From a virus, in the IMG/VR virus record IMGVR_UViG_3300030107_005430, positions 32,001-96,000 of that record: 64,000 nucleotides of DNA; one strand, 5' to 3'. Shown piece after piece: positions 6,545-64,000 of the stretch; position 1 is the first letter of the stretch, and every line of letters begins with the position of its first letter. Both the position numbers and the translations under genes were made by a program. A model generated the notes under the pieces. That model saw only the letters and a program-made list of their open reading frames with translations, had not been told where the DNA came from and did no database searches.

Positions 6545-7285
6545 TCATCCAAATGCTTTTACAATAACTTTTCCATTTCCACCTGCACCGGGATCTCCTC
6601 CAGTTCCCTTTGCAGTACCACCACCACCTCCGCCGGGAACTGCTCCATCATCACCATCACGATTTCCTACAGTATTTACTCCACCATCGCCTCCTGCACC
6701 ACCATCTGGACCCCCTGCATCTCCACCATCACCACCAGCAACTGAGAAGTTTGAAACATTACCTCCTGCGGAACCACTGGTGTTTGTATCTCCGTTGGTT
6801 GAAGTTCCACCTGCACCTCCGTGGACTGGATTGGTGTTGTGACCACCTTCTCCACCATCTCCGCCGCCTGCTATAACATTAGTATATCCGTGAAGAGCGA
6901 AGCCTCCAGAAGTTTGTATTTGAATTAACTGGGTGTTTCCTCCATCTCCACCTGCACCTGCGACTTCACCATTACCATCTCCTGCCGCACCACCTGCACC
7001 GACAGTAAATTTTAGTTGATTGTTTTGTGCTACATGAGCATGTTGTATTTTGTATTTAAGATAGCCTCCACCACCACCACCTGCACCCGCCTGCGAAGCC
7101 GCACTTTTACCACTACCTTGGGAACCTCTATCACCACCACCTCCACCACCACCATACATCTCTACTTCAAGATACACTACACCTGCGGGTATAGAATAAG
7201 TCTGAGTACCAGTGCTTGTGATATTAGTGGTACTTAATACTTGATACTCTCTCGTACTCGCTGCTCTTGCTGCACCTAAACTCAT
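6545..7285 (-). CDS. Glycine-rich virion/fibre-associated protein
   Basis: TYSIPAGV...EMYGGGGGGG...FTVGAGG...GAGGNGKVIV is the common phage Gly-rich domain; ATGA-coupled to the fibre gene. Confidence 0.8.
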   Translation of the reverse strand: MSLGAARAASTREYQVLSTTNITSTGTQTYSIPAGVVYLEVEMYGGGGGGGDRGSQGSGKSAASQAGAGGGGGGYLKYKIQHAHVAQNNQLKFTVGAGGAAGDGNGEVAGAGGDGGNTQLIQIQTSGGFALHGYTNVIAGGGDGGEGGHNTNPVHGGAGGTSTNGDTNTSGSAGGNVSNFSVAGGDGGDAGGPDGGAGGDGGVNTVGNRDGDDGAVPGGGGGGTAKGTGGDPGAGGNGKVIVKAFG

Positions 7286-8883
7286 GCGAAGTTCAATCCA
7301 CCTACGAATCCGTAAATGTTAGTACCACCATCGGTAGTCAAGAATGAAAGTACGTCTGTACCTGATGATGATAGAGATGGTGCAGCACCACCCGGCCAAT
7401 CAACCGCTGAATGCCATGTTGTAGTATTTGCTCCACCGTTTGTGATGATGAGAGTAACCGTTCCTGCAAGTCCAGATGCGGGTGGATTTGTAAAAGTGAA
7501 TAGACAATCTCCATTTCCGGTTACTGTCTGAACAGTACCATCATTGAAATCAATACTGGTATTGGTAGTGATGGTTCCAATGTCATATACTGTTTCTCGA
7601 TATGGTTTTTCGAAGGTGACGCCAGCACCGCTAACATCTATCACATCCTGACGAGTACCACCAGTACTTGCTGATATAGTCAATCTTCCTGATTGCATGT
7701 CAATAGCAGTTGAACTGTCTCCGAAGTGTTGTATATAACGATCAACTGAAAGTTCATTTGCTCTGATGTTTATTTCTGCACCACCACCGTTGAATGCAAT
7801 ATGTTCAGTATCACCACCAATTGTAATAATCTGATCTTCTTGCATGATCAGATCACCACTAAGAGTTAATTTATCGAATGTAGCACCATCTGCGGATATT
7901 CCTCCGCCTTCAAGGTGTAATAAATGTTGAGGATTATTATTATTAATCCCAATATTACCATTTCCCAGAATTGTCATTCTGTCTTGATTGTCTGTTGCAA
8001 ATTGAATATATTGATTAGCAGATCCCGAAGATGACTCTGATTCAATATAGAATGCATTTCCTTGTGCGCCATCAAATTGATTATTCGATTCACCATTGAT
8101 TCCGATGTTACAACTGACTACTCCTCCGTCTTGTTCTAAACGAATGAGTGGGTTGTCGTTTTCACCAGAGTTGTCTGTATCTCCTTTAAGTGTAAGAGCA
8201 ACGTCACCTGCATTCTCGACCACCACATTACTACCGAATGTTGCTCCTTTACTGACATTTAGACCTCCAATAATATCCATTGTTGATCCGGGAGTATTGG
8301 TTCCAATTCCGACATTTCCAGAATCAAGAATTGTCATCTTCATATCACCATACACACCAAACTGTAAATCATTGTGACCCCATTTGGTATTTAAATACGC
8401 AGCATTACTTAATGAATTGGTAAATATCTGTCCAGCGTTACCTACAATACCCAGAGTGAAGTTACCTTCATCGCCATCTTGTCCCATTGATATGAGTGGA
8501 TTATCATTTTCACCGGAGTTGTCTGTGTCTGCGATTAGGTTGAGTGTTACATCACCCGTACTAATTGCTGTTATTTTTCCTCCAAATGTTGCTCCACCCT
8601 TTGCGTTAATTCCACCAGTCATTTCTAGTGTATGTTCGAGATTGGGACCAGTAATTCCTATTCCAACTCTGAGGTTGACAGCATCATAATAGAATGCAGT
8701 GGCACCCTGAATGATAGAACCAGTTGCATCATAGTATGCAATTTCTCCCGTGTTTCCCTGTTCGTTTCCAGTCTCTGTGGATGCACTTACTTCCCACGCA
8801 CCTTGAGCATTGTACTTCCAAGTTTTACCCTCGTAAGTATAGGTACTGTTTAATGATGCTGATGATGGGAAATTAATTGCCAT
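7282..8883 (-). CDS. Tail fibre-like protein with internal repeats
   Basis: N-terminal MAINFPS..Y.Y.GKTWKY...W module; three GN(V/I)GI...GATF repeats, two carrying DTDNSGENDNPLI; C-terminal FTFTNPP...VDWPGGAAPSLS..GTDVLSF fibre domain. Confidence 0.8.
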   Translation of the reverse strand: MAINFPSSASLNSTYTYEGKTWKYNAQGAWEVSASTETGNEQGNTGEIAYYDATGSIIQGATAFYYDAVNLRVGIGITGPNLEHTLEMTGGINAKGGATFGGKITAISTGDVTLNLIADTDNSGENDNPLISMGQDGDEGNFTLGIVGNAGQIFTNSLSNAAYLNTKWGHNDLQFGVYGDMKMTILDSGNVGIGTNTPGSTMDIIGGLNVSKGATFGSNVVVENAGDVALTLKGDTDNSGENDNPLIRLEQDGGVVSCNIGINGESNNQFDGAQGNAFYIESESSSGSANQYIQFATDNQDRMTILGNGNIGINNNNPQHLLHLEGGGISADGATFDKLTLSGDLIMQEDQIITIGGDTEHIAFNGGGAEINIRANELSVDRYIQHFGDSSTAIDMQSGRLTISASTGGTRQDVIDVSGAGVTFEKPYRETVYDIGTITTNTSIDFNDGTVQTVTGNGDCLFTFTNPPASGLAGTVTLIITNGGANTTTWHSAVDWPGGAAPSLSSSGTDVLSFLTTDGGTNIYGFVGGLNFA

Positions 8884-8901
8884 GTCTAATGTCCTTTACA
8901 C

Positions 8902-8909
8902 TATTTATC
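8902..8909 (-). promoter_or_regulatory. T4-type late promoter variant (GATAAATA)
   Basis: About 20 nt upstream of the fibre gene start. Confidence 0.6.
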
Positions 8910-10272
8910 AAAATTCTATCCAGTTACTTTGAGAAGAAACATATGTATATAATTTTGATCTGATGGGATCATACCAGCGATCACCGTCTTGGGGACCCGA
9001 TGGTGCTGATTCCGACTCAGTAAATTTTCCGGTGTCGCTGATTGTCATTTCTATGTCTTTTCCTTTTTGAGCCAAAGTTACCCCGGTTCCTCTGAATATT
9101 AGATCAGAAACAGATTTTATCATTTGTTTATCATTCACACCATCCGTCTTGTCACGAATACCAACAGCACCACCCGCTGCTGCTAACCAATCTCTTGTTC
9201 CTGCCCAATCAAAATCTTGTGATGACGGTTGAATGTTTAATATATTTGCAAGTGTTTTTGTGTCGAGATATACCTTGTCTTCCTCTTCATCTAATCGAAG
9301 AGGGAACTGAAATTTAGTTTTATCAAATGCATTCGTTCCATCTTGTCCGGGATCACCTTTGTCGCCTTTTATTCCTTTCTTTCCTTCTACTCCTCTTTCG
9401 CCCCGATCCCCCCTTTGTCCTTTTGCTCCTTGCTTTCCTTTTGTCCCTTGCTTTCCGGGATCGCCTTTGTCGCCTTTCGGACCTTTTAGTCCAATAGGTC
9501 CTTGAGGACCGACTTCACCCTGTATTCCTTGCTCGCCTTGAGGACCGACTTCACCCTGTATTCCTTGCTCACCTTGAGGACCGACTTCACCTCTTGGACC
9601 TATTTCTCCGGGAATTCCCTGTTCTCCGGGATCGCCTTTGTCGCCTTTATCTCCAATTTCTCCCCGAATTCCCTGTTTACCTTCAAACCCCTTCGGTCCT
9701 TTTGGTAACTTTACTTCAAACAGAGTTTTATCTGTCATATGGATCAATGCAGTTTCAGAATCTAAGTTTTCTACATAACGAACACCAACACCCCTCTCGC
9801 CGTGTTCTCCCTGTTCTCCTTTATCACCTTTCTCACCGGGAATTCCGGGAAGTCCGGGTTTACCGTCATCTCCTCTTTGACCTCTTTCTCCTTGGACACC
9901 TTGAATTGGTTGCTCTTTAATCTCTATTATCTTTTCAACCACCTCTGGTTCTTTTGGTTGTTCTTGTTTTGGTGTTATGAATTTATTGAAACTTTGATTT
10001 ATTTGTGTAAAGGAACCTTCAAGAAGGAAAGGACTTTCGTTCTCATCCACCACAAAAATTTCACTCACACCATTTCCAAAAGAAATTATGTTTGCATTAT
10101 CATTTTCTTCTGTAATGGTAAAAATATGTCCTGCTTCGAATAAATTTTCAATAGGACGAATCAAAACAAATTTATCACCAATACCATTCGAAGAACTTAA
10201 AATATTAAATTCGTCTTTGTTTGGTTCTGTGTTTGATTCAACTTTCAGAAAATTATTAAACGGGAGAGGCAT
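8908..10272 (-). CDS. Collagen-like (Gly-X-Y) fibre protein
   Basis: Two long G-X-Y tracts (GERGQRGDDG..., GPQGEQGIQG...); C-terminal GDRWYD...KLYTY...NWIEF module. Confidence 0.88.
   Translation of the reverse strand: MPLPFNNFLKVESNTEPNKDEFNILSSSNGIGDKFVLIRPIENLFEAGHIFTITEENDNANIISFGNGVSEIFVVDENESPFLLEGSFTQINQSFNKFITPKQEQPKEPEVVEKIIEIKEQPIQGVQGERGQRGDDGKPGLPGIPGEKGDKGEQGEHGERGVGVRYVENLDSETALIHMTDKTLFEVKLPKGPKGFEGKQGIRGEIGDKGDKGDPGEQGIPGEIGPRGEVGPQGEQGIQGEVGPQGEQGIQGEVGPQGPIGLKGPKGDKGDPGKQGTKGKQGAKGQRGDRGERGVEGKKGIKGDKGDPGQDGTNAFDKTKFQFPLRLDEEEDKVYLDTKTLANILNIQPSSQDFDWAGTRDWLAAAGGAVGIRDKTDGVNDKQMIKSVSDLIFRGTGVTLAQKGKDIEMTISDTGKFTESESAPSGPQDGDRWYDPIRSKLYTYVSSQSNWIEF
9500..9591. repeat. 36-bp tandem repeat (about 2.5 copies) within the collagen gene
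   Basis: ccttgaggaccgacttcaccctgtattccttgctc(g/a) x2 plus a 20-bp third copy; encodes GEVGPQGEQGIQ. Confidence 0.95.
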
Positions 10273-10274
10273 GA

Positions 10275-10403
10275 TTATCCTATAAATTTAGTTGTTTGTT
10301 CTTTCTTCGTTTTAACAACAACACTTAAAACTGTTCCAAGAGTTGTTCTTCTTTTTCTTGGCGTTTTCAATTCTAAAACTTTATGAGTTATCTTTACCTT
10401 CAT
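10275..10403 (-). CDS. 42-aa basic hypothetical protein (below ORF-track cutoff)
   Basis: MKVKITHKVLELKTPRKRRTTLGTVLSVVVKTKKEQTTKFIG; ATGA-coupled upstream, ends 2 nt before the collagen ATG. Confidence 0.6.
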   Translation of the reverse strand: MKVKITHKVLELKTPRKRRTTLGTVLSVVVKTKKEQTTKFIG

Positions 10404-10837
10404 CGGGTTATCTCCCCAACGCACTCAAATCTTCCTTGCAACAAACGAATACTTCCGCCCGTTGCTGTGATTTCTAAGTCGTATAAATGTCGGCCGGTTG
10501 GAACGTATCCCATTGCAGTAGCACCTGCAAATATATAAATTCCACCGTTTAAATCTCCGGTATCACCCTCTGATCTATTCATCACGATACCACCAGTACA
10601 GGAAGTCCTTGCCGTACCACCTCCGGTTATTCCTGCGGTGCATCCCAGAATAGAACTATATGGGTTGGATGTTAGATTTAGAAGAATTTTTGATGCATCC
10701 GTAGATCTTCTTACCTGCATATTTGCAGAATAAGTTGGTGATGGAACACTAATACTATTTCCATTTTCATCTTGATAATGAACATGGAGAATAAAATTAT
10801 CTCCCTGATATGCAACTATATCATGTTTTGCAGGCAT
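10400..10837 (-). CDS. Fibre-attachment beta-sandwich protein (LtfC/BppU-like)
   Basis: QGD.F...Y.D...YSANMQVR...YDLEI...RLLQGRF...EITR pattern; AAGGAG RBS; possible late promoter GATATATA at 10859..10866. Confidence 0.65.
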   Translation of the reverse strand: MPAKHDIVAYQGDNFILHVHYQDENGNSISVPSPTYSANMQVRRSTDASKILLNLTSNPYSSILGCTAGITGGGTARTSCTGGIVMNRSEGDTGDLNGGIYIFAGATAMGYVPTGRHLYDLEITATGGSIRLLQGRFECVGEITR

Positions 10838-10870: not shown

Positions 10871-12220
10871 TTATCTCTTTCGTTTCTTACCTTTCTTTGG
10901 AGATTGAGTCTTTGTTCCTACCTTTACTTTATTTCTTTTAGCCTCTTTTTCTGCTTTTTTCTTTTCTTTTGCTTTAGCCTTTTCTTGCATTTCCTTTACA
11001 AGTTGTTCTTTTGCATTTTCTGTGTGCATCTTACCAAGCAATTGTTCATATTGAATGAGATTATTCGCTACCCTTTCTCGTTCAGATTCTGGGATTAAAT
11101 TTTCATCAATCAACCTCTTACATGCATGATATCCGACATGTGGTTTTCCTGCTGCCCATGCACTTGCACCAAGTTCGTCGAGAATTTGATACTTATAAAC
11201 TTCATCACTGATGAACAAAATATCGTCATGTGGATATGGTATCTCTATAGCCATTTTTGCAAAAATATAACCAAGTCGTGGCTTATCGTGCATTTGACGA
11301 TATATTCTTGCTAATTGATATAGAGGTTCTGCTCTGGTTGGTCTGGAATCATAACAATCTAAAAACTTTTGCTGAATCTCTTCCCAAGGCTTATTTAAAA
11401 TTGCAGTAATCAAAGCAACACGATAAAGAGAATAATAGACTTCCTCTTCCCATCCTCCCATTTCTGCTCGTCTTTGATACTGTTCTATTGATTTTTCGTA
11501 TTGCTGAGAATCAAAATAACTCTGTGCAAGGTAGAAAACATATCTAGAATTATCAGGATCATAGAATTGAGATTCTTCATTATATAATGCATCGTATAAT
11601 TTCTCTGCATCCTTTGAGTATTTTTCTTGTGTTGAAATTCCCACGTTTCTTGCACCCAAAGTTCTTGCAGTGATTTTATAATCACTCATCAATTTACCAA
11701 TTTTAGGTTGAGGATTTCCTTGACAGTTAGCATATTCATGAAGAACTCCAACATAGTGCCAGTCAGAATCTAGACGGAATATTTGATTTCTCCACCAAAG
11801 AAAATCTTCTCTTCCTAGACGAAGACTGTATGCATCTTCTTTCATTTCTTCAGGATAGATAAGATCACCTTCGATGTAATCGTCTGCATCAATCATCCAT
11901 GCATATTCTGCATTTCCTTTTGCATTTTGAAGTGCTTCTGTTCTTGAACCAATTCCCTGAGAACCATCACCGAATCCTTTCCAGTCGGAAAGATAAACTT
12001 CTCCGGGAATCCCATGTTCATCCATAAATTCCGTAATGAGTTCCGGTGTTCCATCGGTAGAACCAGTGTCTGTAATGTCATAACGATCAATGTATGGAAG
12101 CATTGATTTGAGACATTCTTTAATGATGTGGGATTCATCTTTCACAATCATACAAAGAGTTACAGTTGTTGGTTTTTTTACCTTCTTGACAGTTTTTACT
12201 GTTTTCATTTCACTATCCAT
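10871..12220 (-). CDS. GT2 glycosyltransferase with TPR repeats and Lys-rich tail
   Basis: TLCMIVKDE, DTGSTDGT, IDADD, YVGVLHEY; RYVFYLAQSYFD and PTRAEPLYQLA TPR helices. Confidence 0.9.
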   Translation of the reverse strand: MDSEMKTVKTVKKVKKPTTVTLCMIVKDESHIIKECLKSMLPYIDRYDITDTGSTDGTPELITEFMDEHGIPGEVYLSDWKGFGDGSQGIGSRTEALQNAKGNAEYAWMIDADDYIEGDLIYPEEMKEDAYSLRLGREDFLWWRNQIFRLDSDWHYVGVLHEYANCQGNPQPKIGKLMSDYKITARTLGARNVGISTQEKYSKDAEKLYDALYNEESQFYDPDNSRYVFYLAQSYFDSQQYEKSIEQYQRRAEMGGWEEEVYYSLYRVALITAILNKPWEEIQQKFLDCYDSRPTRAEPLYQLARIYRQMHDKPRLGYIFAKMAIEIPYPHDDILFISDEVYKYQILDELGASAWAAGKPHVGYHACKRLIDENLIPESERERVANNLIQYEQLLGKMHTENAKEQLVKEMQEKAKAKEKKKAEKEAKRNKVKVGTKTQSPKKGKKRKR

Positions 12221-12234: not shown

Positions 12235-13152
12235 CTATGATGTCACTTCTTTATATGAAGAAATCCAATCTTGAAGTTTTACTTTGGGATTCCATCCTAA
12301 CATTATTTTAATCTTATTGATATTTGCTTTTGATATTCTAACCTCTGCAAGTCTGGGTGGGATATGTTGAAATTTTGCATCATCTCCCCCTATCATTCGA
12401 ATTAAATCAAATATATTCCAATTAACTCCAGTTCCAACATTGAAAATTTCCCCAAACACATCCTCATTCTTTGTTATTGCAGCATTAATATTCGCTTGTA
12501 CAACATCACTCACATGAGTAAAATCTCTTCGTTGCATTCCATCACCAACAACTGTCATTTCTTCATTATTTTCGTGTTGTCGGAGGAATAATCCAATCAC
12601 AGGAGCATACTGTCCTTTTACTGGTTGTCTTTCTCCATAAACATTGAAGTAACGGAATATGATGGTTTCCATCCCATACATGTCGTGGAACATCTTACAC
12701 AGATTTTCGCCCGATACCTTTGTGATAGAATATGCATTCAGACAATCTGGAATCATATCTTCAGTTACGGGTGCTTGATTATTCAAACCGTAAGAAGAAG
12801 AAGTAGAAGAATATACAAATCTCTTCACTCCATGTTCTCTTGCCGCTTGCAGAACATTGCATGTCCCATAAACATTTGTTTTTGCGGTGAGTGTTGGATT
12901 ATGAATTGCGGGTTGAATTCTTGCTTCTGCTGCCAGATGAAATACACAATCTACATCTTCAAATAAAGATTCTATCTTGTCATAATCACAAATGTCATAC
13001 TTGTAGTTATCTGCCTTATTGTTCCAATAAAAAGAATCATGACAATCAGTTGATTCGTTGTCTATAACGATAACAGAATGATCAAGTTCCAATAGTTCAT
13101 CTACTAAATTAGAACCAATAAATCCTGCTCCTCCTGTCACTAAATAACGCAT
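12235..13152 (-). CDS. NAD-dependent nucleotide-sugar 4-epimerase (GalE/WbpP-like)
   Basis: VTGGAGFIGS, YSITK, FRYFNVYG, RDFTHV. Confidence 0.92.
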   Translation of the reverse strand: MRYLVTGGAGFIGSNLVDELLELDHSVIVIDNESTDCHDSFYWNNKADNYKYDICDYDKIESLFEDVDCVFHLAAEARIQPAIHNPTLTAKTNVYGTCNVLQAAREHGVKRFVYSSTSSSYGLNNQAPVTEDMIPDCLNAYSITKVSGENLCKMFHDMYGMETIIFRYFNVYGERQPVKGQYAPVIGLFLRQHENNEEMTVVGDGMQRRDFTHVSDVVQANINAAITKNEDVFGEIFNVGTGVNWNIFDLIRMIGGDDAKFQHIPPRLAEVRISKANINKIKIMLGWNPKVKLQDWISSYKEVTS

Positions 13153-14126
13153 TTCAAAATCTCCACAATTTTTTCACTAGAAGTACCATCACCATAAGGG
13201 CACTCTTCATCTACTATATAGTCGTCTTTTATTCGATTGAATATTTCCTTCAAATCATTTGGTTCTTTGCATAGTATAGAAGACGTTCCTACAGAAGCAA
13301 GTCTCTCTGTTTTCTTTCGACAAACAATTATTTTCTTTTTAAAGAAAGATGCTTCCTCCTGTATGCCCCCACTATCTGAAATTATAAATCTGCATTTTGA
13401 AATCGCATTGATCATATCATCATATGATAAAGGTTCAATTACTGACACATCCTTCAACAGATCTCTATGTTTTCTTATCTCTGGGTTTGGATGTATGGGT
13501 AATACAAATTGTAAATCGGGATTGTTGGATGCAAGTTCTGATATTTTTTCAAAATATTCTGGTATTAATTTTAAATTCTCTCTTCTGTGTAGAGTTACCA
13601 AAACCACATTGTCATATGATATAGGAATTCCTTTTAAATTATCCAGCACAGTATTTCCTACGACATGAACATCTCCTACGACATGATCTTGACTCAAGAA
13701 TCCTGCTTCAAAGGCTGTTGGTGCTAGATGAATAGTCGCTATCTTTGATATACTTTGTCTATAAAATTCTTCTGGATATGGATTCTCGATGTCATATGTT
13801 CTCATTCCCGCTTCCAGATGTATCACAGGAATCTTATGATGGAAAGCAGACAGAGCAACAGCATAAGCAGTAGCAGTATCTCCTTGCACTAGAACATGAG
13901 AAACCCATTCTTCCTCAAAATCAAAAGAATTCATAACAGAAGAAACAATCGAATCTAATCTGTTTCTACCATCCGAGATTTTAATTAGATGATCATATTC
14001 ACCATCAACCATATCATTGTGTTGTGAAACTCTTAAAATTTCAAACGGAACAACCCCCGTCATTTTTTTAATGAGGGGTTTGACTTTAATATACTCTGGT
14101 CTTGTTCCGTAACAAACTAATATCAT
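13140..14126 (-). CDS. wecB: UDP-GlcNAc 2-epimerase, non-hydrolysing type
   Basis: GTRPE, VQGDT, HLEAGMRT, PYPEE, LHRREN, DSGGIQEEA. Confidence 0.92.
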   Translation of the reverse strand: MILVCYGTRPEYIKVKPLIKKMTGVVPFEILRVSQHNDMVDGEYDHLIKISDGRNRLDSIVSSVMNSFDFEEEWVSHVLVQGDTATAYAVALSAFHHKIPVIHLEAGMRTYDIENPYPEEFYRQSISKIATIHLAPTAFEAGFLSQDHVVGDVHVVGNTVLDNLKGIPISYDNVVLVTLHRRENLKLIPEYFEKISELASNNPDLQFVLPIHPNPEIRKHRDLLKDVSVIEPLSYDDMINAISKCRFIISDSGGIQEEASFFKKKIIVCRKKTERLASVGTSSILCKEPNDLKEIFNRIKDDYIVDEECPYGDGTSSEKIVEILKCVI

Positions 14127-14129
14127 AAT

Positions 14130-14444
14130 CTACTCATTTTCAAAAAATTCAGATGCGTTTATTGCTTTGTCGTCAATATAATGATCTGCTGCGTGTTTGG
14201 TTCCTGTTCGAAGGGTGTGATATTTTACACCCCAATTTCTCAATTGTCTTTCAGTAACTTCGTGCCAATCTTTTCCAGAAACTGATCCTCTCGCAGTCTC
14301 TATGATAATTTTGTTTCCTTTATCATAGAGAGAATTTACCTTTTCAATTCTCTTCAAAATGGGATATGATTTATCATACTGTTGACGATGCCATCCCTCA
14401 TCAAGTTTACAAAGAGTCCCGTCCAAGTCGAAACAATAAATCAT
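14130..14444 (-). CDS. Capless HAD phosphatase
   Basis: FDLDGTLC, TARG, YIDDKA; 104 aa. Confidence 0.85.
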   Translation of the reverse strand: MIYCFDLDGTLCKLDEGWHRQQYDKSYPILKRIEKVNSLYDKGNKIIIETARGSVSGKDWHEVTERQLRNWGVKYHTLRTGTKHAADHYIDDKAINASEFFENE

Positions 14445-15076
14445 AATAATCTCTCCACAAATTTCATGTCGTCATAAGTATCAATTTGAACACTATCCGC
14501 AAAAGGCATTTCTACTACTGCTATCTTCCCACTCACTCTTGTCTTGTTTGCGATTAAACTCTTTTTAGTTGTGGTGTATGCAGCACCATTCTCAACATAA
14601 ACTTCATTTCTATCCTGTCTTCTTGGACGTTTTTCATTTCTAAAACCAATGGGTTGAACATCTAATGTCCATCGAGGATACCAATGTTCCCTGTATGCAG
14701 TAAAAGAAGAATCGTATCCTTCTTTGATTCTTTCTAAACTCTCGTTTATATATTTTGGAGACAACAAAGGAGAAGTTGGTTGAATGGAAACCAGAATATC
14801 AAAATCAACATTGTCGCAAAAATGTAATAGTGATTCTTCGTTTGGAGAATTATCTTTGGCAAATTCCTCTGGTCTGTCGATTACTTTTGCTCCAAACTTC
14901 TTTGCTATTGTTTTTATGTTTGAAGAATCTGTGCTAACCCAAACTTCATCCACATCAGAATATTTTGCTGCGTTAATGGTATATGCAATCAAAGGTTCTC
15001 CTCCCAATAACTGAATATTCTTATTGGGTATTCCTTTGCTTCCACCTCTCGCAAGAATTAATGCAATTGATTTCAT
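14441..15076 (-). CDS. neuA: CMP-nonulosonic acid synthetase
   Basis: LARGGSKGIPNKN, VSTD, QPTSPL, ENGA, IDT..D. Confidence 0.95.
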   Translation of the reverse strand: MKSIALILARGGSKGIPNKNIQLLGGEPLIAYTINAAKYSDVDEVWVSTDSSNIKTIAKKFGAKVIDRPEEFAKDNSPNEESLLHFCDNVDFDILVSIQPTSPLLSPKYINESLERIKEGYDSSFTAYREHWYPRWTLDVQPIGFRNEKRPRRQDRNEVYVENGAAYTTTKKSLIANKTRVSGKIAVVEMPFADSVQIDTYDDMKFVERLL

Positions 15077-15897
15077 CCTCTGAGTGCCTTTCTCTTTTTC
15101 ATTTCAGAATCAAACAATTCTCTCGGTCCACCTTCGCCGAATGATTTTTCTATATCTCTTATTCCCTTCACCAGTTTAATCAGTCCCATTGGTTCTACCG
15201 AAGATACATGATCCGAACCCCACATGGTTCGATCTAATGTAATGTGTCGTTCTACCCAAGATGCTCCCATTGCTACAGCAGCAAATGTTGTAACTAATCC
15301 ATATTCATGTCCACTATATCCTATCTCCTTTGATGGATATTTTTCTTTCAACCAATTAATATAGTTCAGATTCAATTCTCCGATTGGAGATGGATATGTA
15401 GAATTAGTATGAAAGATTAGATCGGGGTTTGATATCATTGTAGCATTTTCAATTTCTTTTTCTTCACTCATTCCAGTAGAAATCATTAAATAATCTGATT
15501 TATCTCTTGCATAAAATAAAAGATTATTATTTGTAATAAGAGCAGATGGAACTTTCATTGTCCCTGTATATCTTCTCATGAAGTCAACAGAGTCTATGTC
15601 CCAAACAGATGCAAATATTCCTATTCCTTTTGATTCAGCATATGAAAATAACTCATCATATTGAGAATCATCAAACTCCATTTTATATTTGTATTCAATA
15701 TAGGACATCTCTCCCCAAGGAGTATCTCTTCTCTTATATTTTTGATCTTCTGGAACACAAACGTCTGGATTTCTTTTTTGAAACTTTACAAAATCACAAC
15801 CAGAGATTGATGCAACATCAATCAATTTCTTTGCTGTCTCAACACTACCATTATGATTAATGCCGATCTCTGCAATAATTTTTGTGGTCATAATCAT
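15073..15897 (-). CDS. neuB: Nonulosonic acid (sialic acid/KDN) synthase, short form without the C-terminal antifreeze-like domain
   Basis: IAEIGINHNG, VKFQKR, STGMS, GYSGHE, VERHITLDR; 274 aa. Confidence 0.95.
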   Translation of the reverse strand: MIMTTKIIAEIGINHNGSVETAKKLIDVASISGCDFVKFQKRNPDVCVPEDQKYKRRDTPWGEMSYIEYKYKMEFDDSQYDELFSYAESKGIGIFASVWDIDSVDFMRRYTGTMKVPSALITNNNLLFYARDKSDYLMISTGMSEEKEIENATMISNPDLIFHTNSTYPSPIGELNLNYINWLKEKYPSKEIGYSGHEYGLVTTFAAVAMGASWVERHITLDRTMWGSDHVSSVEPMGLIKLVKGIRDIEKSFGEGGPRELFDSEMKKRKALRG

Positions 15898-16553
15898 TCA
15901 GTCCTTTCAAAGACAACTGTAGTATTATTATAAATCCATTTATCATAAGCAGGTGGTTCCTTCATCCAATAAACTTTATGTTTAATTTCATCCCAAACTT
16001 CTGGAGTTATTGTATAGATTAATTTCCAATCTTCAAGATTTAAAGATTCAAAAAACTCCATCCACTTTTCATGTGTCCAACATGTTAAATGTAGAGGTCC
16101 AACTCCATATTTATTTCCTTCGAGTGTGTTTACTATTTTATGTGCAACATACTTCCTTGATGTTCTAAAACACTCTCTGTGTGCTTTTTCTTGATCTTCT
16201 GGTCGCAAATGCTCAATCACATCAGTTGAACATACCAAATCAAAAGAATTATCATCAAAAGGAATATCTGTAATAGAAGCAACCTGTGCAGATACACCAC
16301 GTTCTATTGCTCGATCTATAGCAGTTTTAGAAACATCTATACCTTTACACTCTTTATCCAATGGTTCAAAAAAAGATTTTATACCAATTCCTGTAGAGCA
16401 TCCAACATCCAAAACGGATTTATATTCTATTTGTGATGGATGTAAACAGCAATTCAAAAATGCATCATAATGTGTAGATTTCAATTCATTACTGGAATGA
16501 TACCCATGTTTACTATACAATTCTTCATACAATTCTTCATAAAATTTAGTCAT
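15894..16553 (-). CDS. Class I SAM methyltransferase
   Basis: VLDVGCSTG, GIDVS, FDLVCSTDVIEHL. Confidence 0.9.
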   Translation of the reverse strand: MTKFYEELYEELYSKHGYHSSNELKSTHYDAFLNCCLHPSQIEYKSVLDVGCSTGIGIKSFFEPLDKECKGIDVSKTAIDRAIERGVSAQVASITDIPFDDNSFDLVCSTDVIEHLRPEDQEKAHRECFRTSRKYVAHKIVNTLEGNKYGVGPLHLTCWTHEKWMEFFESLNLEDWKLIYTITPEVWDEIKHKVYWMKEPPAYDKWIYNNTTVVFERTE

Positions 16554-20215: not shown

Positions 20216-20216
20216 T

Positions 20217-25663: not shown

Positions 25664-25664
25664 A

Positions 25665-35546: not shown

Positions 35547-35552
35547 TTAATC

Positions 35553-57382: not shown

Positions 57383-57396
57383 TTACTATCTCCAAA

Positions 57397-57948: not shown

Positions 57949-57978
57949 TTGTTAGTCTCCTTGGTGATACTATATGTA

Positions 57979-59304
57979 TCAGCCTAAACTATCCTGAGTG
58001 TTTTTATTTGTAAATTGAATCTGAATAAAGTTAATACTCTTTGCAGGCTTAACGAATACATCTGCTACAAATTGATTCGAATCAATAATATTTGATGTAT
58101 TATTGGTTTCATCACAAACTACTCTAAAGTCATAGATTCCATCCCTTGATTTAATTTGAGTCAAGAAAGGTTCAATTGCATTTTTAAATGATGATCTTGT
58201 ATCCGCATCATTAATCTCAAACAATTTACTACGAGCAGCAGCACCGATTGTCTTCTTAAGATGAATGAACAATCTTGAAACATTAATTCTACTTAATGTG
58301 CTAGTAGCAACTGTAGTTGTCTTATCTCCGAACAACATAATTCCATTGTCTGGATCATTAATGATTGGATTGACTGCACCATCATAAAGAGTATCTTGCT
58401 CACCCTTTGTTGGATTGTATGCAAGTTTAATTGCATCAATGAGAGTTCCTCTTCTTGCTCCAGCAGGAGAAATCCAAGGATCTGCAACTTGATCTGTTCT
58501 TGCCATGATTCCTGCAACATCGGGGGCGCAGTGAATGTTTATTAGTCCTGTTTCATTTTCATTAGCATTTCTGTTGATATTAGTTTGGTATTTTTGTCCA
58601 AAAACTTCAACAACATATTCGGATGCTTGTGAACCAGAAACTCTACCAACACCACTAACATCAGCGAGAACACCAGCATCTCCCGCAGTTCCTCCATTTG
58701 GAACAACCGCAATACAATCCTTTCTGGTTGTTGCTACATTTACTGCTGTGGTGACTTGAGTTGGGTTTGGAAGATATCTATTGTTAGCATAATCCGCTCC
58801 ACCAGTAGATGCTCCTACAAAAACAACATCTATATTGAGAGATTTGTCCTGTAAAGCACTTTCTGAACCAGCAACTATGCACCTACCACCATATTGAAGG
58901 AAATTGTGAACAGCCCACCAATCACCTTTCCATCCACCTGTTGGACCTTGCGGCCATCTTCCATAAGTGTTTCCGCCTGCAAACGCATCACCTGCTCGAT
59001 GTCCTGTCCCATCATCTGTTGCATGACGAAATGGTACTTCAGTAGAATCATATAACCCTGCTGTTGTACCATCAACTCCGGTTGGTTCTCTTGATGATAA
59101 TCTGTTCATCCAATCACCGACGTTTTCTATCGTCATATAACCATTTGCTCGTTCAGCAGTATTACCAAGAACTGTTAATAAACCATGATGGTGTTCGGTG
59201 TGTGCAACAGATACCATTCCACCAACAGTCTGCGAATCACCACCACGGAATGGAATTACAAAACTGTCATCTGTTATTTGGACGTTTACTTGGGCTCTAG
59301 CCAT
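57979..59304 (-). CDS. gp18: Tail sheath protein gp18, copy 2 (441 aa)
   Basis: NFLQYG, RKDC, PW.SPAG..RG, LY...VNP, GDKT, RINVSRLF, CDETNNT, KPAKSINFI. Confidence 0.93.
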   Translation of the reverse strand: MARAQVNVQITDDSFVIPFRGGDSQTVGGMVSVAHTEHHHGLLTVLGNTAERANGYMTIENVGDWMNRLSSREPTGVDGTTAGLYDSTEVPFRHATDDGTGHRAGDAFAGGNTYGRWPQGPTGGWKGDWWAVHNFLQYGGRCIVAGSESALQDKSLNIDVVFVGASTGGADYANNRYLPNPTQVTTAVNVATTRKDCIAVVPNGGTAGDAGVLADVSGVGRVSGSQASEYVVEVFGQKYQTNINRNANENETGLINIHCAPDVAGIMARTDQVADPWISPAGARRGTLIDAIKLAYNPTKGEQDTLYDGAVNPIINDPDNGIMLFGDKTTTVATSTLSRINVSRLFIHLKKTIGAAARSKLFEINDADTRSSFKNAIEPFLTQIKSRDGIYDFRVVCDETNNTSNIIDSNQFVADVFVKPAKSINFIQIQFTNKNTQDSLG

Positions 59305-59328
59305 TTGTGATTACTCCTGTAGAACCAA

Positions 59329-60669
59329 TCAATCTAGCGTGTCTGCTGTGTTCTTGTTGGTAAATGTTAGTTTTATGAAGTTGATACTCTTTGCAGGTTT
59401 AATAAACACATCTGCTACGAATTGATTTGAATCAATTATCGAACCAGTATTGTTTGTTTCATCACAAACTACTCTATAATCAATGATGCCTCTTCTTGAC
59501 TTGATTGTAGACAGGAAGGGTTCAACTGCATTTTTAAATGATGATCTTGCATCTGCATTATTAATCTCAAAGAGATAATTTCGTGCAGCAGCACCGATTG
59601 TTTTCTTAAGATAGATGAACAATCTTGAAACATTGATTCTGCTTAGTGTGCTTGTTGAAATTGCAGTAGTTTTATCTCCCCAAAGAACCGTTCCTTCTCC
59701 GGGGAAAGTTACTACGGGATTGAGTTTAGCATTATAGAGTCTATCTTGTTCTACATCTGTTGGATTGTGAACAAGTCGAACAACATCTTGAATTCTTCCT
59801 CTGGTAAATCCAGCAGGTGACCACCAAGGATCATTTAATTCATCTGTTCGTGCCATACATCCTGCAACATCTGGTGCAAGGTGGAAAGATAAGAGTGAAG
59901 AATCACCAAGAATTTCACCTGTTCGGGAAATTCCTAGATGTTTCTTGTCACCCCAAACTACGACTTGATATTCACTTGCTGCTACACCAGAAGGTAAACC
60001 GGGTGATGCTGCAACCGAACTATGTCCTGTTGTTACTGCTGGGAACACACCAATGCAGTCTCTTCTATTAGTAACAACATTTGCTACGTCTACTAATTCC
60101 GTAACAGAACCCAGAGAGGCAGTAGAGTCGCCAGTATTGGGTGCTTCTCCACCTCTTGTTGCAGTAAATGTATCGTTACTGGAACCACCAGTTCCTCCTC
60201 CAACGAAAACAAAGTCAAGAGGAATTGAAGTATCTTTTAATGTTTCTCTGCCAGAATTTAATGCAGTACCAGTGTGTGTTTCACTTCCAGTTCCGCCGAC
60301 TACAAGTTCTCCTCCATACTGGAGGAAGTTGTGACCGGCCCACCATTCACCTCTCCATCCTCCAGTTGGTCCATAAGGCCATCTGCCTGCACCAGTGGTT
60401 CCTGCGGTAGCATGAGTTCCTGTATTCGTCACATGATTTTTACCATCAGCACCGTCAGTACCAGCAATTGGATCTGTGGTTGTTAATCTTTGAATCCAAT
60501 CCGCAACAGATCCAATTTGCATTATTCCTGATTTTCTTTCTGCTGTGGTCCCGAGTGCAAGAACCAATCCACCATATGAAATTAAACCACCCCTAGATGT
60601 TCCTGTGAAACTTCCCGGAATTACAAAACTATCGTCATTTATGTAAACGCTGACATTAGGTCTGGCCAT
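59329..60669 (-). CDS. gp18: Tail sheath protein gp18, copy 1 (446 aa)
   Basis: Same sheath motifs, including NPVVTFPGEGTVLWGDKT. Confidence 0.93.
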   Translation of the reverse strand: MARPNVSVYINDDSFVIPGSFTGTSRGGLISYGGLVLALGTTAERKSGIMQIGSVADWIQRLTTTDPIAGTDGADGKNHVTNTGTHATAGTTGAGRWPYGPTGGWRGEWWAGHNFLQYGGELVVGGTGSETHTGTALNSGRETLKDTSIPLDFVFVGGGTGGSSNDTFTATRGGEAPNTGDSTASLGSVTELVDVANVVTNRRDCIGVFPAVTTGHSSVAASPGLPSGVAASEYQVVVWGDKKHLGISRTGEILGDSSLLSFHLAPDVAGCMARTDELNDPWWSPAGFTRGRIQDVVRLVHNPTDVEQDRLYNAKLNPVVTFPGEGTVLWGDKTTAISTSTLSRINVSRLFIYLKKTIGAAARNYLFEINNADARSSFKNAVEPFLSTIKSRRGIIDYRVVCDETNNTGSIIDSNQFVADVFIKPAKSINFIKLTFTNKNTADTLD

Positions 60670-60732: not shown

Positions 60733-60740
60733 TATTTATA
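60733..60740 (-). promoter_or_regulatory. T4 late promoter TATAAATA (gp18)
   Basis: Exact consensus; a second variant TATACATA lies just downstream. Confidence 0.85.
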
Positions 60741-60744
60741 CTTA

Positions 60745-62421: not shown

Positions 62422-62902
62422 CCACAATTTCCGTATCTATAATAATATTCTCAGTAAGTGACTTCTTTGCACTTCTGGATTGATTTATCAAATCTTGTAA
62501 ATCTGTCGTTGAACCAACATAAATTGAATTATTCGTAGTATTGTTTTGATTAAGAGTTATATCTTCTCTCTTGATTTCTTTCATTTTCTTATGAAGATCA
62601 ATTAAGTCTTTATTTGCTTCTGCTACTGTTTTGATCATTTGTGCTGCAACTTCATATGCTCTGGGAGAATCTCCCTCTGTTGCAACTTTTAATATACCTT
62701 CAATTGCCACTTCACCTGTTTCAATAAGACCTTTTATGTTATGACGAACAAGATTATAATCTTTCATCATATCTTTATTTTGAACAGAAGGTGCAGAAAT
62801 TTCTTTCTTCTTTATTTCTTTTGTTTCTTCTTTCTCAAACTCTACACCCATTGCTTCAGACAATTTATCATTCACATCTTTTTTGTTATCATGAATAGTC
62901 AT
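62411..62902 (-). CDS. gp16: Terminase small subunit gp16
   Basis: DY...R, PRAYEV, NNSIYVGSTTDLQ. Confidence 0.95.
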   Translation of the reverse strand: MTIHDNKKDVNDKLSEAMGVEFEKEETKEIKKKEISAPSVQNKDMMKDYNLVRHNIKGLIETGEVAIEGILKVATEGDSPRAYEVAAQMIKTVAEANKDLIDLHKKMKEIKREDITLNQNNTTNNSIYVGSTTDLQDLINQSRSAKKSLTENIIIDTEIVDEQ

Positions 62903-63641
62903 ACGTTACTCCACCATATACATTTGCACCTGCGGTTGCTCCAGTAGTTCCAGTCGCTCCTGCTCGTATCAATTGAGCATCACCTATAAGAGCGTCGAGA
63001 CTACCATGAATATCCGCATAAGAATCTAAAATAATCGAGGATGTCTTGACTGGAGAATAAACATAAGTTTTTGCTGTAAACTCAAAAGAAGTTGTAATGT
63101 TTCTTCTTGTATCAAAATCACCTTCATACTCTTCCACTGTATCTATACCGTTCAATACAATCGGAATATCTACTTTCGAATTTATATTATTTTGTTTTAC
63201 TGTTACAATAAATTCTGGTGAAAAGTAAGGAGTAATTTGCTCAATAATTTGTAGATTATCATCCATATTTCTTGAAAATGCATACAAACCAAAAGATATA
63301 TTATATGGAGTCTCATTATAGTTATATTCAACATTACCATCAGATTTCTGATATCTTGTTTGTCTCAACTTATTTGTTTTTCTAGCAGGATCATATGCAA
63401 TACCAGTAATGTTGAATCCCATTGTAGGTAAAGTAATTTGAACCTTTGTTGTGTCTGAGATTGAACTCATTTGTTGTATTCGTCGAATATACTTTTCCTT
63501 CGGTCCATATGAAAGTGGAACACGAATACTTTCCTTCGTAGAACCATCAGAATTCTTACGAATGATTTTTATATCATTGAACAATGAACCAAATCCAATG
63601 ACAACTTTACGAATCGCCTCGTTGTAAAATGAAGTAAACAT
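62889..63641 (-). CDS. gp15: Tail sheath stabiliser/terminator gp15
   Basis: FG.LFN.I, VPL.YGPKEK, LP.M.F, LQIIEQI.PYF.P, DIPI.L. Confidence 0.95.
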   Translation of the reverse strand: MFTSFYNEAIRKVVIGFGSLFNDIKIIRKNSDGSTKESIRVPLSYGPKEKYIRRIQQMSSISDTTKVQITLPTMGFNITGIAYDPARKTNKLRQTRYQKSDGNVEYNYNETPYNISFGLYAFSRNMDDNLQIIEQITPYFSPEFIVTVKQNNINSKVDIPIVLNGIDTVEEYEGDFDTRRNITTSFEFTAKTYVYSPVKTSSIILDSYADIHGSLDALIGDAQLIRAGATGTTGATAGANVYGGVTYDYS

Positions 63642-64000
63642 TAATAATTACCCTCCGAGAACGGATCTGTGTCCGTGAAGTCAAAGATATCATCTTGATC
63701 TCTAAACAATTCAATATCTTCATTGTCACCCATTGGTTTGTTATCTTCAGTTTCTTGTGGAATAATTATTGTTGTAGTAGTCTTACTACTAATTTCATAT
63801 TCTGCACCAGATACTGCACCCTTAAGGGTAGGTATACCAGAATCTGCCACTTCTGTAGTGGAAAGAGTTCCCACAACATTAGTAATTGTCAGTTTAGTAG
63901 TCGCAGAGTCCCAATCTGTTGCAACAGCAGTTGCAGTTGCATTTCCAAGTGTTGCACTTGAACCTGTTGTTCCACTAACTTGATATACTGTTTCTCCCTC
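63641..64000 (-). CDS. gp14: Neck protein gp14 (3' part; begins outside the window)
   Basis: Frame stays open to the window edge (EGETVYQVSGTTG...); ends DFTDTDPFSE as gp14 does; upstream of gp15. Confidence 0.85.
   Translation of the reverse strand, partial: EGETVYQVSGTTGSSATLGNATATAVATDWDSATTKLTITNVVGTLSTTEVADSGIPTLKGAVSGAEYEISSKTTTTIIIPQETEDNKPMGDNEDIELFRDQDDIFDFTDTDPFSEGNY

Follow-up and report, generated by a model that had tools for sequence, protein, structure and literature searches.

Does the tetrapeptide G-x-T-(G/A) mark sites of O-glycosylation in the virion proteins of this T4-like phage genome? The first-pass annotation of the window (the whole stretch of DNA that was analysed, 64,000 nucleotides) had listed instances of this motif, written GxT[GA] below, and proposed a shared Thr acceptor on unrelated virion proteins. 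Every listed example was found in the sequence, and the signal was stronger than first claimed. The virion proteins on which the question turns are the following.

7282..8883, minus strand: 533-aa fibre protein (PHROG tail fibre families); 3 motifs vs 1.9 expected
8908..10272, minus strand: 454-aa collagen-like fibre (PHROG collagen-like tail fibre families); 0 motifs
50104..50655, minus strand: gp3-like tube-fold protein (PHROG 45); 2 motifs vs 0.09 expected
50748..52112, minus strand: major capsid protein, gp23-like (PHROG 138); 1 motif vs 0.69 expected
57979..59304, minus strand: tail sheath copy 2, 441 aa (PHROG tail sheath); 4 motifs vs 0.80 expected
59329..60669, minus strand: tail sheath copy 1, 446 aa (PHROG tail sheath); 5 motifs vs 1.18 expected
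62889..63641, minus strand: gp15-like tail sheath stabiliser (PHROG 227); 3 motifs vs 0.21 expected
63641..64000, minus strand: gp14-like neck protein, truncated by the window end (PHROG 460); 1 motif (GTTG)

The proteins of the window were divided into 17 virion proteins and 59 others. The former hold 25 GxT[GA], compared with 9.2 ± 2.9 after whole-protein shuffling and 11.0 ± 3.1 after shuffling within 12-residue blocks, and 25 was attained in none of 300 shuffles; the latter hold 4, against 4.0-4.5 expected. The enrichment survives control for Gly, Thr and Ala content and for local composition. Over the whole genome we counted 98 instances versus 36.7 expected by composition and 42 ± 5 by local shuffles (about 37-43 overall), or 82 clusters versus 41.5 expected once overlapping instances were merged; true collagen-like (G-x-T)n runs, outside the window, supply part of this signal. 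To allow for the post-hoc choice of motif, we ranked all 70,484 a-x-b-[c/d] motifs of the genome: GxT[AG] came 7th (z = 10), and the ranks above it were GxC[C/.] variants only. The DNA pattern under the motif occurs 98 times in frame 0, and 2 and 11 times in the other frames, and the codons of the instances follow background usage, indicating that the signal acts at the protein level.

For comparison across genomes, we took as positives this genome (G000) and four other long T4-like contigs (G001, G002, G003 and G005), all with a GT2 glycosyltransferase of ~450 aa, and as negatives five complete T4-like phage genomes with no match to the GT2 profile. With collagen-like runs masked, the GxT[GA] ratio was 2.45-2.87 in all five carriers and 0.84-1.19 in the five genomes without GT2, so the excess is absent in relatives that lack the enzyme and its island. 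The distance of G003 and G005 from G000 is nearly that of Melnitz (gp23 identity 66% vs 61%, portal 59-60% vs 51%). As the five positive genomes are one clade, the five-versus-five contrast may represent a single evolutionary event, and shared ancestry confounds the cross-genome association of the motif with GT2. Exposed tail, neck and fibre proteins reached 3.2-5.5x in 5/5 positive genomes, while non-virion proteins stood at 1.05-1.4x in four of the five (2.4x in G002, from 6 matches) and head-internal proteins at about 1x in four of the five (3.1x in G003, its four matches all in gp23). Tail tube proteins of the five genomes contained no GxT[GA]. The excess is restricted to proteins of the sheath, neck, baseplate and fibres, and in one clade of uncultured marine T4-like phages GxT[GA] is a genuine signature at the protein level.

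The motif is also narrow in sequence. Pooled over the five GT2-carrying genomes, GxTG stood at 4.06x and GxTA at 2.42x expectation, compared with 1.23x for GxSG, 1.35x for AxTG and 1.06x for GxTS; among 7,870 a-x-b-c motifs, GxTG ranked 1st (505 vs 124, z = 34) and GxTA 3rd. In the window virion proteins, GxSG was observed once where 5 were expected. That Ser does not replace Thr, nor Ala or Ser the first Gly, goes beyond the specificity of a general preference for turns and argues against an alternative that we consider unlikely, in which G-x-T-G would be a favoured turn or strand-cap in fibre and tail domains rich in beta structure, and duplication and the exchange of modules would have spread it through the clade. 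GT2 would then co-occur through shared ancestry, and the island would modify host surface glycans or a few fibres, for example. An excess is lacking in five other T4-like phages whose fibres are comparable, and the motif is carried by at least 10 protein families of unrelated folds (sheath, gp15, gp3, Ig-like, baseplate wedge, fibres and a 474-aa orphan among them), including unstructured terminal tails and loops of low model confidence. The same alternative draws support from the single clade of the positive genomes and from the share of the count that falls in homologous proteins: a 2052-aa and a 1920-aa protein have every motif at a similar position in the N-terminal 260 residues, and motif positions are in common between the sheath paralogues. 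It is further favoured by the surroundings of isolated motifs, about 13% of which have Asn at -1; counted from Gly, V(-5), S(-3), a hydrophobic residue at -2, A(+4) and V(+5) are separately enriched. The Asn and the extended flanking context, which takes the form V..S[FV]N-G-x-T-G-A-V in a subset, suggest a fibre repeat module.

Sheath copy 1 carries GTTA, GTTG, GPTG and two GGTG, at residues 40, 90, 100, 125 and 158, and its N-terminal 160 residues, which hold all of them, had no tblastn match in cultured phages. Across the clade, G40 and T42 of this protein are invariant and GPTG is nearly so. Copy 2 has GNTA, GTTA, GPTG and GGTA (residues 47, 79, 120 and 204). The sheath GPTGGW, nearly invariant in the clade and placed within a Trp-rich segment, is probably structural rather than a modification site, as are the NG-x-TG-x-V modules of fibres. 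In the 533-aa fibre, GNTG, GATA and GITG lie near the N-terminus, and the enrichment of this protein alone is not significant. A single GTTG occurs in the protein at 48136-49620, labelled UvsW in the first-pass annotation; the Melnitz and S-TIM4 orthologues have one motif each, a match in number.

Terminal extensions provide a different kind of evidence. The C-terminus of gp15, GATGTTGATAG, comprises residues 228-238, and its C-terminal tail AGATGTTGATAGA contains three overlapping GxT[GA]. These tails are unalignable across the clade, yet GxT[GA] is found in those of G001-G003 too; the one motif of the G005 protein lies outside the tail, giving at least one motif in 5/5 genomes and a motif-bearing C-terminal tail in 4/5. 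The gp15 orthologues of Melnitz, S-TIM4 and RB10 have zero GxT[GA]. Likewise, the gp3-like protein begins MAIGVTGSTAG, with two motifs, and its N-termini are unalignable across the clade; N-terminal motifs recur in G001 and G005 (GTTGGYTG and GFTG) and are missing from G002 and G003, a total of 3/5 genomes. Short linear motifs recur in this way, in segments that cannot be aligned, and it is difficult to account for the pattern unless the short motif itself is under selection.

Such behaviour in exposed termini would also suit a recognition site of another kind, namely a different Thr modification (e.g. phosphorylation), a site of processing, or one where the Ig-like adaptor or a chaperone of fibre assembly docks. 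We regard this as very improbable: no candidate kinase, protease or chaperone was found that co-varies with the motif, while a protein-type glycosyltransferase and a 25-kb sugar island do. For the processing version, the T4-type prohead protease cuts after Glu in L/I-x-E motifs, a specificity that differs from G-x-T-G.

The glycosyltransferase, its neighbour and the island occupy a continuous part of the window.

10400..10837, minus strand: 145-aa Ig-like beta-sandwich protein; 5 motifs vs 0.39 expected
10871..12220, minus strand: 449-aa GT2 glycosyltransferase (Pfam Glycos_transf_2, 33.7 bits vs cut-off 23.3)
12235..36200, minus strand: island of about 29 genes (~25 kb) for soluble sugar-nucleotide, glycosyltransferase and methyltransferase enzymes (Pfam)

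The C-terminal half of GT2 is helical and TPR-like, with TPR families under the Pfam cut-offs, and its DTGSTD and DADD motifs are invariant in five homologues. Its best solved relative is GmaR, a flagellin O-GlcNAc transferase (E 2.5e-10 with a profile, 2.6e-07 with the single sequence), the match covering the GT domain only (profile positions 17-206, or residues 19-119 with the single sequence); the peptide glycosyltransferase SunS is also among the best. In Listeria monocytogenes, GmaR puts GlcNAc on flagellin, and its GT domain is followed by a helical TPR-type region to which recognition of the protein substrate is ascribed (PMC9638930; PDB 22ao). GT2 has the same order of domains, and the DTGSTD and DxD motifs align; unlike GT2, GmaR has 637 residues and an anti-repressor domain, and its substrate is flagellin. 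Judged by homology, GT2 is a candidate protein O-glycosyltransferase and priming enzyme.

More than 532 IMG/VR loci contain a relative of GT2, whose gene usually lies directly upstream of a gene for a G-x-T-rich protein. The downstream protein is of two types: one is small and Ig-like, with G[IV]TGGGT as a conserved loop, and the other is a collagen-like fibre of the G-x-T kind. Directly after GT2, G002 encodes a protein of 940 aa in which (G-x-T)n spans 270 residues, and loci L106-L109 encode one of 591 aa that holds 60 motifs. The 145-aa protein, whose gene directly follows GT2 in 6/6 metagenome contexts and 42/80 IMG/VR loci, carries GCTAGITGGGTA, GDTG and GATA, that is, a GCTA-GITG-GGTA tandem followed by GDTG and GATA. 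In its 19 homologues, the most divergent of which share 37% identity, G69 never varies, and conservation at T71, G72 and G73 is 90% or higher. Its model is usable (pLDDT 78), and in it the motifs lie in low-confidence loops (72-76 and 92-96, below 50) outside the strands. The best fold matches were small baseplate or collar proteins of T5 and DT57C (TM about 0.57), and the protein is a candidate acceptor or fibre adaptor. The canonical T4 late promoter (TATAAATA) was not found immediately upstream of either the GT2 or the Ig-like gene, which leaves their late expression together with virion proteins unsupported.

This adjacency is strongest for exactly the Ig-like loop protein and the (G-x-T)n fibres, which raises a possibility that we hold to be rather unlikely: GT2 might modify only such linked substrates, the G[IV]TGGGT loop and the (G-x-T)n runs at fibre N-termini, and the isolated motifs of sheath, gp15, gp3 and baseplate would have no connection with it, being features of structure or composition in the clade. 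Tunturi_5, an unrelated jumbo phage, fits this view, as its GT2 (37% identical) is encoded ~3.7 kb from the one large G-x-T collagen-like tail fibre of that phage, and isolated motifs are not in excess (ratio 0.83). The experimental precedent, SgtA-BclA3, likewise concerns collagen-like repeats only (PMC7157674); BclA-type proteins are collagen-like glycoproteins of the exosporium. In Clostridioides difficile, sgtA, encoding a GT-A-type enzyme, adjoins bclA3, and within Gly-Pro-Thr repeats the enzyme attaches O-GlcNAc to Thr; in vitro it accepts Ser as well (PMC7157674). The likeness to our locus lies in gene arrangement (a soluble glycosyltransferase gene beside a G-x-T-rich gene) and acceptor motif, and clade fibres begin with GPTGPTG runs that resemble the GPT triplets of BclA3, in which Thr of Gly-x-Thr is followed by Gly. 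Unlike that system, the clade has mostly isolated tetrapeptides in at least 10 unrelated virion proteins instead of long collagen repeats, its enzyme is phage-encoded and tied to a 25-kb variable sugar island, and Ser variants of its motif are not enriched. The 2.45-2.87x that remains in 5/5 genomes after masking collagen-like runs, and the recurrence in gp15 and gp3 extensions, argue against restriction to the linked substrates.

Among the sugar enzymes of the island, Pfam identified NeuB, UDP-GlcNAc 2-epimerase, a CMP-type cytidylyltransferase, an aminotransferase and epimerases, and among its transferases two GT11, GT10, GT17, two GT2 and weak GT8 and GT29, with at least 8 methyltransferases. 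In a 19-residue Kyte-Doolittle scan with a threshold of 1.6, no island protein scored above except, marginally, that of 18613-19455 (1.68), and no island protein matched lipid-carrier enzyme families. This near-absence of membrane-type segments, with no hit to lipid-carrier families, fits direct cytoplasmic protein glycosylation. In relatives the island content varies and GT2 is kept; the island enzymes presumably extend and decorate a glycan.

Because the motif is packed in exposed proteins and all carriers have an enzyme related to protein glycosylation, it probably marks sugar sites. We give a probability of about 0.5 to the reading that the Thr of GxT[GA] is O-glycosylated by GT2, with the glycan extended by the island, on exposed tail, neck, sheath, baseplate and fibre proteins. 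The motif Thr would be modified in the cytoplasm of the infected cell; the conserved, soluble, GmaR-like GT2 (10871-12220) would add the first sugar, and the strain-variable island (12235-36200) would extend and methylate it. If so, the particle would have a variable glycan coat on tail and fibres.

Several observations weigh against this glycosylation reading. Enrichment is absent from the major capsid protein, which is the most exposed of the virion proteins; gp23 includes STGNAGTATGG and a GNTG 8 residues from its C-terminus. Non-virion proteins carry the motif at chance, with no avoidance, so a soluble enzyme would need determinants beyond the four residues. Tunturi_5 has the homologous GT2 and lacks the isolated-motif excess. 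The 454-aa collagen-like fibre, which adjoins the GT2 region, is built of charged G-X-Y triplets with a Thr fraction at Y of 0.00 over 162 collagen-like residues. The probably structural sites, the single clade of the positive genomes, the sub-threshold TPR assignment and the missing late promoter count against the reading as well. The original proposal of a shared Thr acceptor is partly supported: the analysis shows the excess and its residue specificity, its restriction to exposed virion proteins, its co-occurrence with GT2, the homology of GT2 and the adjacency of its gene to G-x-T-rich genes. The sequon reading is well motivated, and its support is correlative. The 'priming transferase' that it attributed to the island now has a concrete candidate, GmaR-homologous and genetically coupled to G-x-T-rich proteins, whose action on these Thr we infer.

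Some viruses are known to glycosylate their particles. Chloroviruses and mimivirus decorate virion proteins or fibrils through a cytoplasmic glycan pathway of several enzymes, encoded by the virus, whose sugars include methylated and rare ones (PMC9614988). Unlike the clade phages, these are eukaryotic giant viruses, and chlorovirus glycans are N-linked at atypical sites without a G-x-T-G sequon (PMC9614988); the likeness is a virus-encoded multi-enzyme glycan gene set with methylation, here predicted from the genes. In mycobacteriophages, as far as Freeman et al. 2023 is described in PMC12619734, phage glycosyltransferases modify the C-termini of capsid and tail-tube subunits. On that description, their hosts, enzymes and glycan gene sets differ from those of the clade, and it is sheath, neck, baseplate and fibres that are enriched here, not capsid and tube; the placement of the motif on terminal extensions, at the gp15 C-terminus and the gp3 N-terminus, is similar.

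By PHROG and Pfam searches, the phage is assigned to the T4-like myoviruses, and all long open reading frames (ORFs) in the window lie on the minus strand. The regions considered here are as follows.

50-64 kb, minus strand: gp14 (neck), gp15 (sheath stabiliser), small and large terminase, two sheath and two tube proteins, portal, prohead protease, scaffold, major capsid protein and a gp3-like tube-fold protein (PHROG, Pfam)
10.9-36.2 kb, minus strand: sugar-nucleotide/glycosyltransferase/methyltransferase block of ~30 genes (Pfam), the island
6.5-10.8 kb, minus strand: a 145-aa protein, a collagen-like fibre, a second fibre and a Gly-rich protein, between the sugar block and the replication genes

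The window corresponds to bases 32001-96000 of a 157-kb parent record, and a baseplate and fibre module sits just past its right end. When the island and the structural region were compared with cultured phages by megablast, only short matches in gp23 (major capsid protein) came back, indicating that the phage has no close cultured relative; its portal is ~50% identical to cyanophage and pelagimyophage portals. We also noticed tandem pairs of sheath genes (58% identical to each other) and of tube genes at 56807-60669. Paired sheaths also occur in the close IMG/VR relatives L001 and L002, paired tube genes were seen in L001 only, and the long contigs G001-G005 each gave a single best sheath match. 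The sheaths here are short, 376-446 aa versus 660-750 aa in cultured T4-like phages.

The first-pass annotation had proposed that G-x-T-[G/A] (GxT[GA]) recurs in virion proteins as a Thr O-glycosylation acceptor motif. All of its listed examples were found in the window proteins, and the implied excess held up against shuffled sequences: the 17 window virion proteins carry 25 motifs, versus 9.2 ± 2.9 after whole-protein shuffling and 10.3-11.0 ± 3 after shuffling within blocks of 30 or 12 residues, and 0 of 300 shuffles reached 25. Composition or low complexity alone is excluded by the local shuffles. The 59 other window proteins contain 4 motifs versus 4.0-4.5 expected. Genome-wide, we counted 98 motifs, where composition predicts 36.7 and local shuffling 42 ± 5, or, with overlapping matches merged, 82 clusters versus 41.5 expected. 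Because the motif had been picked post hoc, from the data, it was ranked in this genome among every motif of that form, 70,484 in total; GxT[AG] came seventh (z = 10), behind six GxC[C/.] variants from Cys-rich modules of tail proteins. Counted by frame, the DNA pattern of the motif gives 98 occurrences in the coding one versus 2 and 11 in the others, and the codons inside it mirror genome usage. These results indicate that the signal acts at the protein level, and exclude a nucleotide motif or codon artefact as its cause. The motif excess is a real observation.

The signal is partly collagen-like. Three giant tail proteins outside the window (2052, 1920 and 1016 aa) start with Gly-x-Thr-rich collagen-like runs, e.g., GNTGPTGPTGPTGPTGSTGPTG, and Gly-Pro-Thr repeats of the collagen type were found at the N-termini of these fibres. 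Collagen repeats as the sole cause were excluded by masking runs of ≥4 G-X-Y triplets, outside which 84 of the 98 motifs fall, versus 34.2 expected after masking. The isolated motifs do not lie in uninterrupted G-X-Y triplets long enough for a triple helix: the clusters in gp15, gp3 and the Ig-like 145-aa protein comprise 2-3 units only, with a period of 4 in the last. The window also encodes a 449-aa family 2 glycosyltransferase, GT2 (10871-12220, minus strand), and in the collagen-like fibre adjoining it the triplets are charged, with Thr at no Y position.

We compared ORF sets from five complete T4-like phages (Melnitz, HTVC008M, S-TIM4, P-TIM40 and RB10) and four long IMG/VR contigs (G001, G002, G003 and G005) picked via their GT2 gene. 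A GT2 profile search of the five cultured phages gave zero matches; GT2 and the 145-aa family are both present in all four contigs. After masking, the observed/expected ratio was 2.45 in the genome of this phage (G000) and 2.87, 2.78, 2.85 and 2.75 in G001, G002, G003 and G005, respectively, versus 0.84, 1.10, 1.12, 1.14 and 1.19 in the cultured phages. The excess that had been tied to the island is absent from these relatives without enzyme or island. The distance of G003 and G005 to G000 is almost as large as that of Melnitz. The five positive genomes form one clade, so they do not represent five independent events.

Pooled over these five GT2-carrying genomes, GxTG was the first of 7,870 a-x-b-c motifs (505 versus 124 expected, 4.06-fold) and GxTA the third (183 versus 76, 2.42-fold). 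One-position variants gave ratios near 1 (GxSG 1.23, GxAG 1.36, AxTG 1.35, SxTG 1.10, GxTS 1.06 and GxTD 0.91), implying that all three defined positions matter; in the window virion proteins GxSG is depleted (1 versus 5 expected). Exposed tail, neck, sheath, baseplate and fibre proteins reached 3.2-5.5-fold in all five genomes. Non-virion proteins stayed at 1.05-1.4-fold in four, with 2.4-fold in G002 from 6 matches only, and head-internal proteins at ~1-fold in four, with 3.1-fold in G003, where the four matches are all in gp23. The tail tube contains zero motifs across the five genomes, including both window copies, and window gp23 has 1 versus 0.69 expected. This differs from mycobacteriophage virion glycosylation, which is known at the C-termini of capsid and tail tube (as cited in PMC12619734).

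Separately, of all gapped motifs in this genome, GxCC shows the strongest enrichment (GxC[C/.], ~30 versus 5 expected; GxCC pooled over the five genomes, 115 versus 17). It comes from Cys-rich modules of tail and baseplate proteins, e.g., GITGACCGGDGNC, GGTGACCGGTECN and GVTGCCCSCSG, often straight after a GxTG, and these modules may be metal-binding or disulfide-rich knots. GxCC-bearing regions outside the window are the following.

Genome 112067-115117 (L005:16067-19117)
Genome 119820-123109 (L006:3820-7109)
Genome 99050-100075

An ancestral conserved T4 motif was excluded for the core proteins by outgroup orthologues: gp15 of Melnitz, S-TIM4 and RB10 has 0 motifs, as has the sheath of Melnitz and RB10, and the longer S-TIM4 sheath (750 aa) has four. 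Across the clade, the sheath keeps three motif positions, LGxT[A/G/S]E, GPTG[G/A]W and GGTGS, and its N-terminal segment holding motifs has no counterpart in cultured phages. The AlphaFold model of sheath copy 1 (10-row alignment) had a mean pLDDT of 50.5, too low for reading motif exposure. The C-terminal tails of gp15 cannot be aligned between clade members, and gp15 carries at least one motif in five of five genomes, located in that tail in four; gp3 N-termini show similar retention in three of the five. Such retention of four residues, in termini with no other conservation, is how short linear motifs typically behave. Asn precedes ~13% of the isolated motifs (−1), and V(−5), S(−3), a hydrophobic residue at −2, A(+4) and V(+5), counted from Gly, are separately enriched. 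These flanks look like a structural fibre repeat and count against a sequon, as would suit a clade-specific structural signature unrelated to sugar, a reading that we consider improbable.

GT2 is the first gene of the island. It matches Pfam PF00535 over residues 22-122 (33.7 bits versus a cut-off of 23.3), and its D51-T-G-S-T-D56 and D111-A-D-D114 are invariant in five homologues and align with the corresponding residues of Listeria GmaR. GmaR (PDB 22ao_A) is also the closest solved relative (profile E 2.5e-10 over 190 positions; single sequence E 2.6e-07), followed by SunS. In GmaR, an N-terminal GT domain puts GlcNAc on flagellin, and recognition of the protein substrate has been proposed for the TPR domain that comes after it (PMC9638930). 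The C-terminal half of GT2 is helical, TPR_17, TPR_2 and TPR_16 match residues 203-252, all below Pfam cut-offs, and the match to the designed TPR protein CTPR390 has an E value of 0.01. Membership in the SunS family of peptide S-glycosyltransferases (TIGR04195) was excluded (18.9 bits versus a 350-bit equivalog threshold), and kinship with SunS is confined to the GT domain. The reading that we consider likeliest, with about an even chance (roughly 0.5), is that Thr in G-x-T-[G/A] is O-glycosylated by this candidate GmaR-like enzyme, with the island extending the glycan. Our literature search found no paper on a G-x-T sequon in T4-like phages.

The 145-aa gene (10400-10837, minus strand) starts 33 nt past the GT2 stop codon and encodes a protein carrying GCTAGITGGGTA. 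This gene order is repeated in loci L042-L047, and in six of six metagenome contexts a 145-aa-type gene follows a 48-74%-identical GT2, with varying sugar genes upstream. The Ig-like gene lies ≤3 kb downstream on the same strand in 42 of 80 IMG/VR loci. For eight of the other 38, the stretch retrieved shows either no ORF downstream or no ORF that could be identified as GT2. Among the remaining 30, the next gene is fibre-like in roughly a dozen, including L106-L109 with a 591-aa protein carrying 60 motifs, and starts like dUTPase in at least four. In G002, a 940-aa protein containing 270 residues of (G-x-T)n comes after the Ig-like gene. Among 19 homologues of the 145-aa protein (down to 37% identity), G69 is invariant and T71, G72 and G73 are kept in ≥90% (G[IV]TGGGT loop), and a second G-x-T/S-G is also kept. 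Its AlphaFold model (pLDDT 78) is an Ig-like sandwich in which the two motif loops are the least confident parts. The top fold matches are small baseplate or collar proteins of T5 and DT57C, which makes the earlier label of "adaptor" reasonable; tblastn against cultured phages gave zero matches.

A 37%-identical GT2 was also found in Tunturi_5, an unrelated 309-kb soil jumbo phage of Tunturiibacter (L158, PP885688.1 28905-38126). It lies ~3.7 kb from the only large collagen-like protein of that phage, a 1469-aa tail fibre in which Thr-rich collagen-like repeats make up 330 residues (Thr at 60% of Y positions), and four paralogous ~285-aa genes stand between the two. This locus looks like an independent instance of enzyme-substrate pairing. 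A known precedent is Clostridioides difficile SgtA, a GT-A-type enzyme encoded immediately upstream of bclA3, which attaches beta-O-GlcNAc to Thr of Gly-Pro-Thr repeats (PMC7157674). Here too, GT2 adjoins genes for G-x-T-rich proteins (window, L042-L047, G002 and L106-L109). GT2 might accordingly act on its linked substrates only, namely the Ig-like loop and collagen-like G-x-T runs. Isolated motifs are not in excess in Tunturi_5, as this would have it, whereas in the present genome, unlike the collagen-like acceptor of SgtA, 84 of 98 motifs lie outside such runs; we regard restriction to linked substrates as rather unlikely.

If G-x-T-[G/A] is an acceptor site, the remaining island genes would extend the sugar. 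Island Pfam searches gave zero lipid-carrier, flippase or polymerase families, and the island proteins have no membrane-type hydrophobic segments save one marginal hydropathy window (gene 18613-19455). Such a soluble gene set is consistent with sugars being added step by step, in the cytoplasm, to an acceptor that is itself soluble. The T4 late promoter (TATAAATA) was present upstream of gp3, gp22, gp20 and sheath, and not directly upstream of GT2 or the Ig-like gene. Two tandem island paralogues at 32107-33476 (227 and 229 aa) share near-identical N-termini, M[KR]GLISFSLYGDDPRYT.NCIKNKPLADKY; a Pfam scan of the one at 32107-32790 gave zero matches.

Upstream of the conserved GT2, relatives carry wholly different sets of sugar genes (window 12235-36200 versus L042-L047). 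The window island has NeuB and many methyltransferases, L043 a TPP enzyme and a DHQ-synthase-like gene, L044 a formyltransferase and UDP-glucose dehydrogenase, and L046 heptose-type kinase and cytidylyltransferase genes. The flanks are kept, with GT2 on one side and, where the far side is seen, the Ig-like gene, dUTPase and DNA polymerase. This arrangement resembles an O-antigen-like hypervariable locus.

A broader reading, offered as a tentative possibility, is that a widespread marine T4-like clade has its own general O-glycosylation system with a minimal sequon. One conserved GmaR-like GT2 would prime dozens of sites on sheath, neck, baseplate and fibres, and the hypervariable island, which in this phage spans 25 kb and encodes a nonulosonic-acid pathway as well as many methyltransferases, would then build strain-specific glycans, giving virion "glycan serotypes" analogous to bacterial O-antigens. 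If so, glycosylation of tailed-phage particles would have its first defined acceptor motif outside mycobacteriophages, in an abundant marine group (GT2 relatives occur in >532 IMG/VR loci). It would explain why 15-20% of the genome is given to sugar genes that differ between close relatives, and a glycan coat on tail and fibres would vary where the virion meets hosts, proteases, grazers or particles. A four-residue sequon would allow glycosylated virion proteins to be predicted from sequence, and the idea is directly testable without culturing the phage.

Outside the window and away from the tail module, a 474-aa orphan (genome 136388-137812, plus strand; L007:388-1812) carries 6 motifs versus 1.2 expected and is kept in G001-G003 with 5-8 motifs each. 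PHROG and Pfam searches gave no family for it, and Pfam, PHROG and NCBIfam searches of the 145-aa, 474-aa and 2052-aa proteins returned nothing or a family of unknown function only. The orphan is probably an unrecognised exposed virion protein. Finally, fibre genes adjoining GT2 (window 7282-8883; L071, L078, L080, L083, L091, L095, L104, L106 and L116) have an N-terminal signature in common, M-x-x-x-FP-x-x-P-x-x-G-x-x-[YH]-x-x-x-x-x-x-W-x-[YF]-N-G-x-x-W, behind which the shafts diverge widely; the signature probably represents a shared attachment domain.
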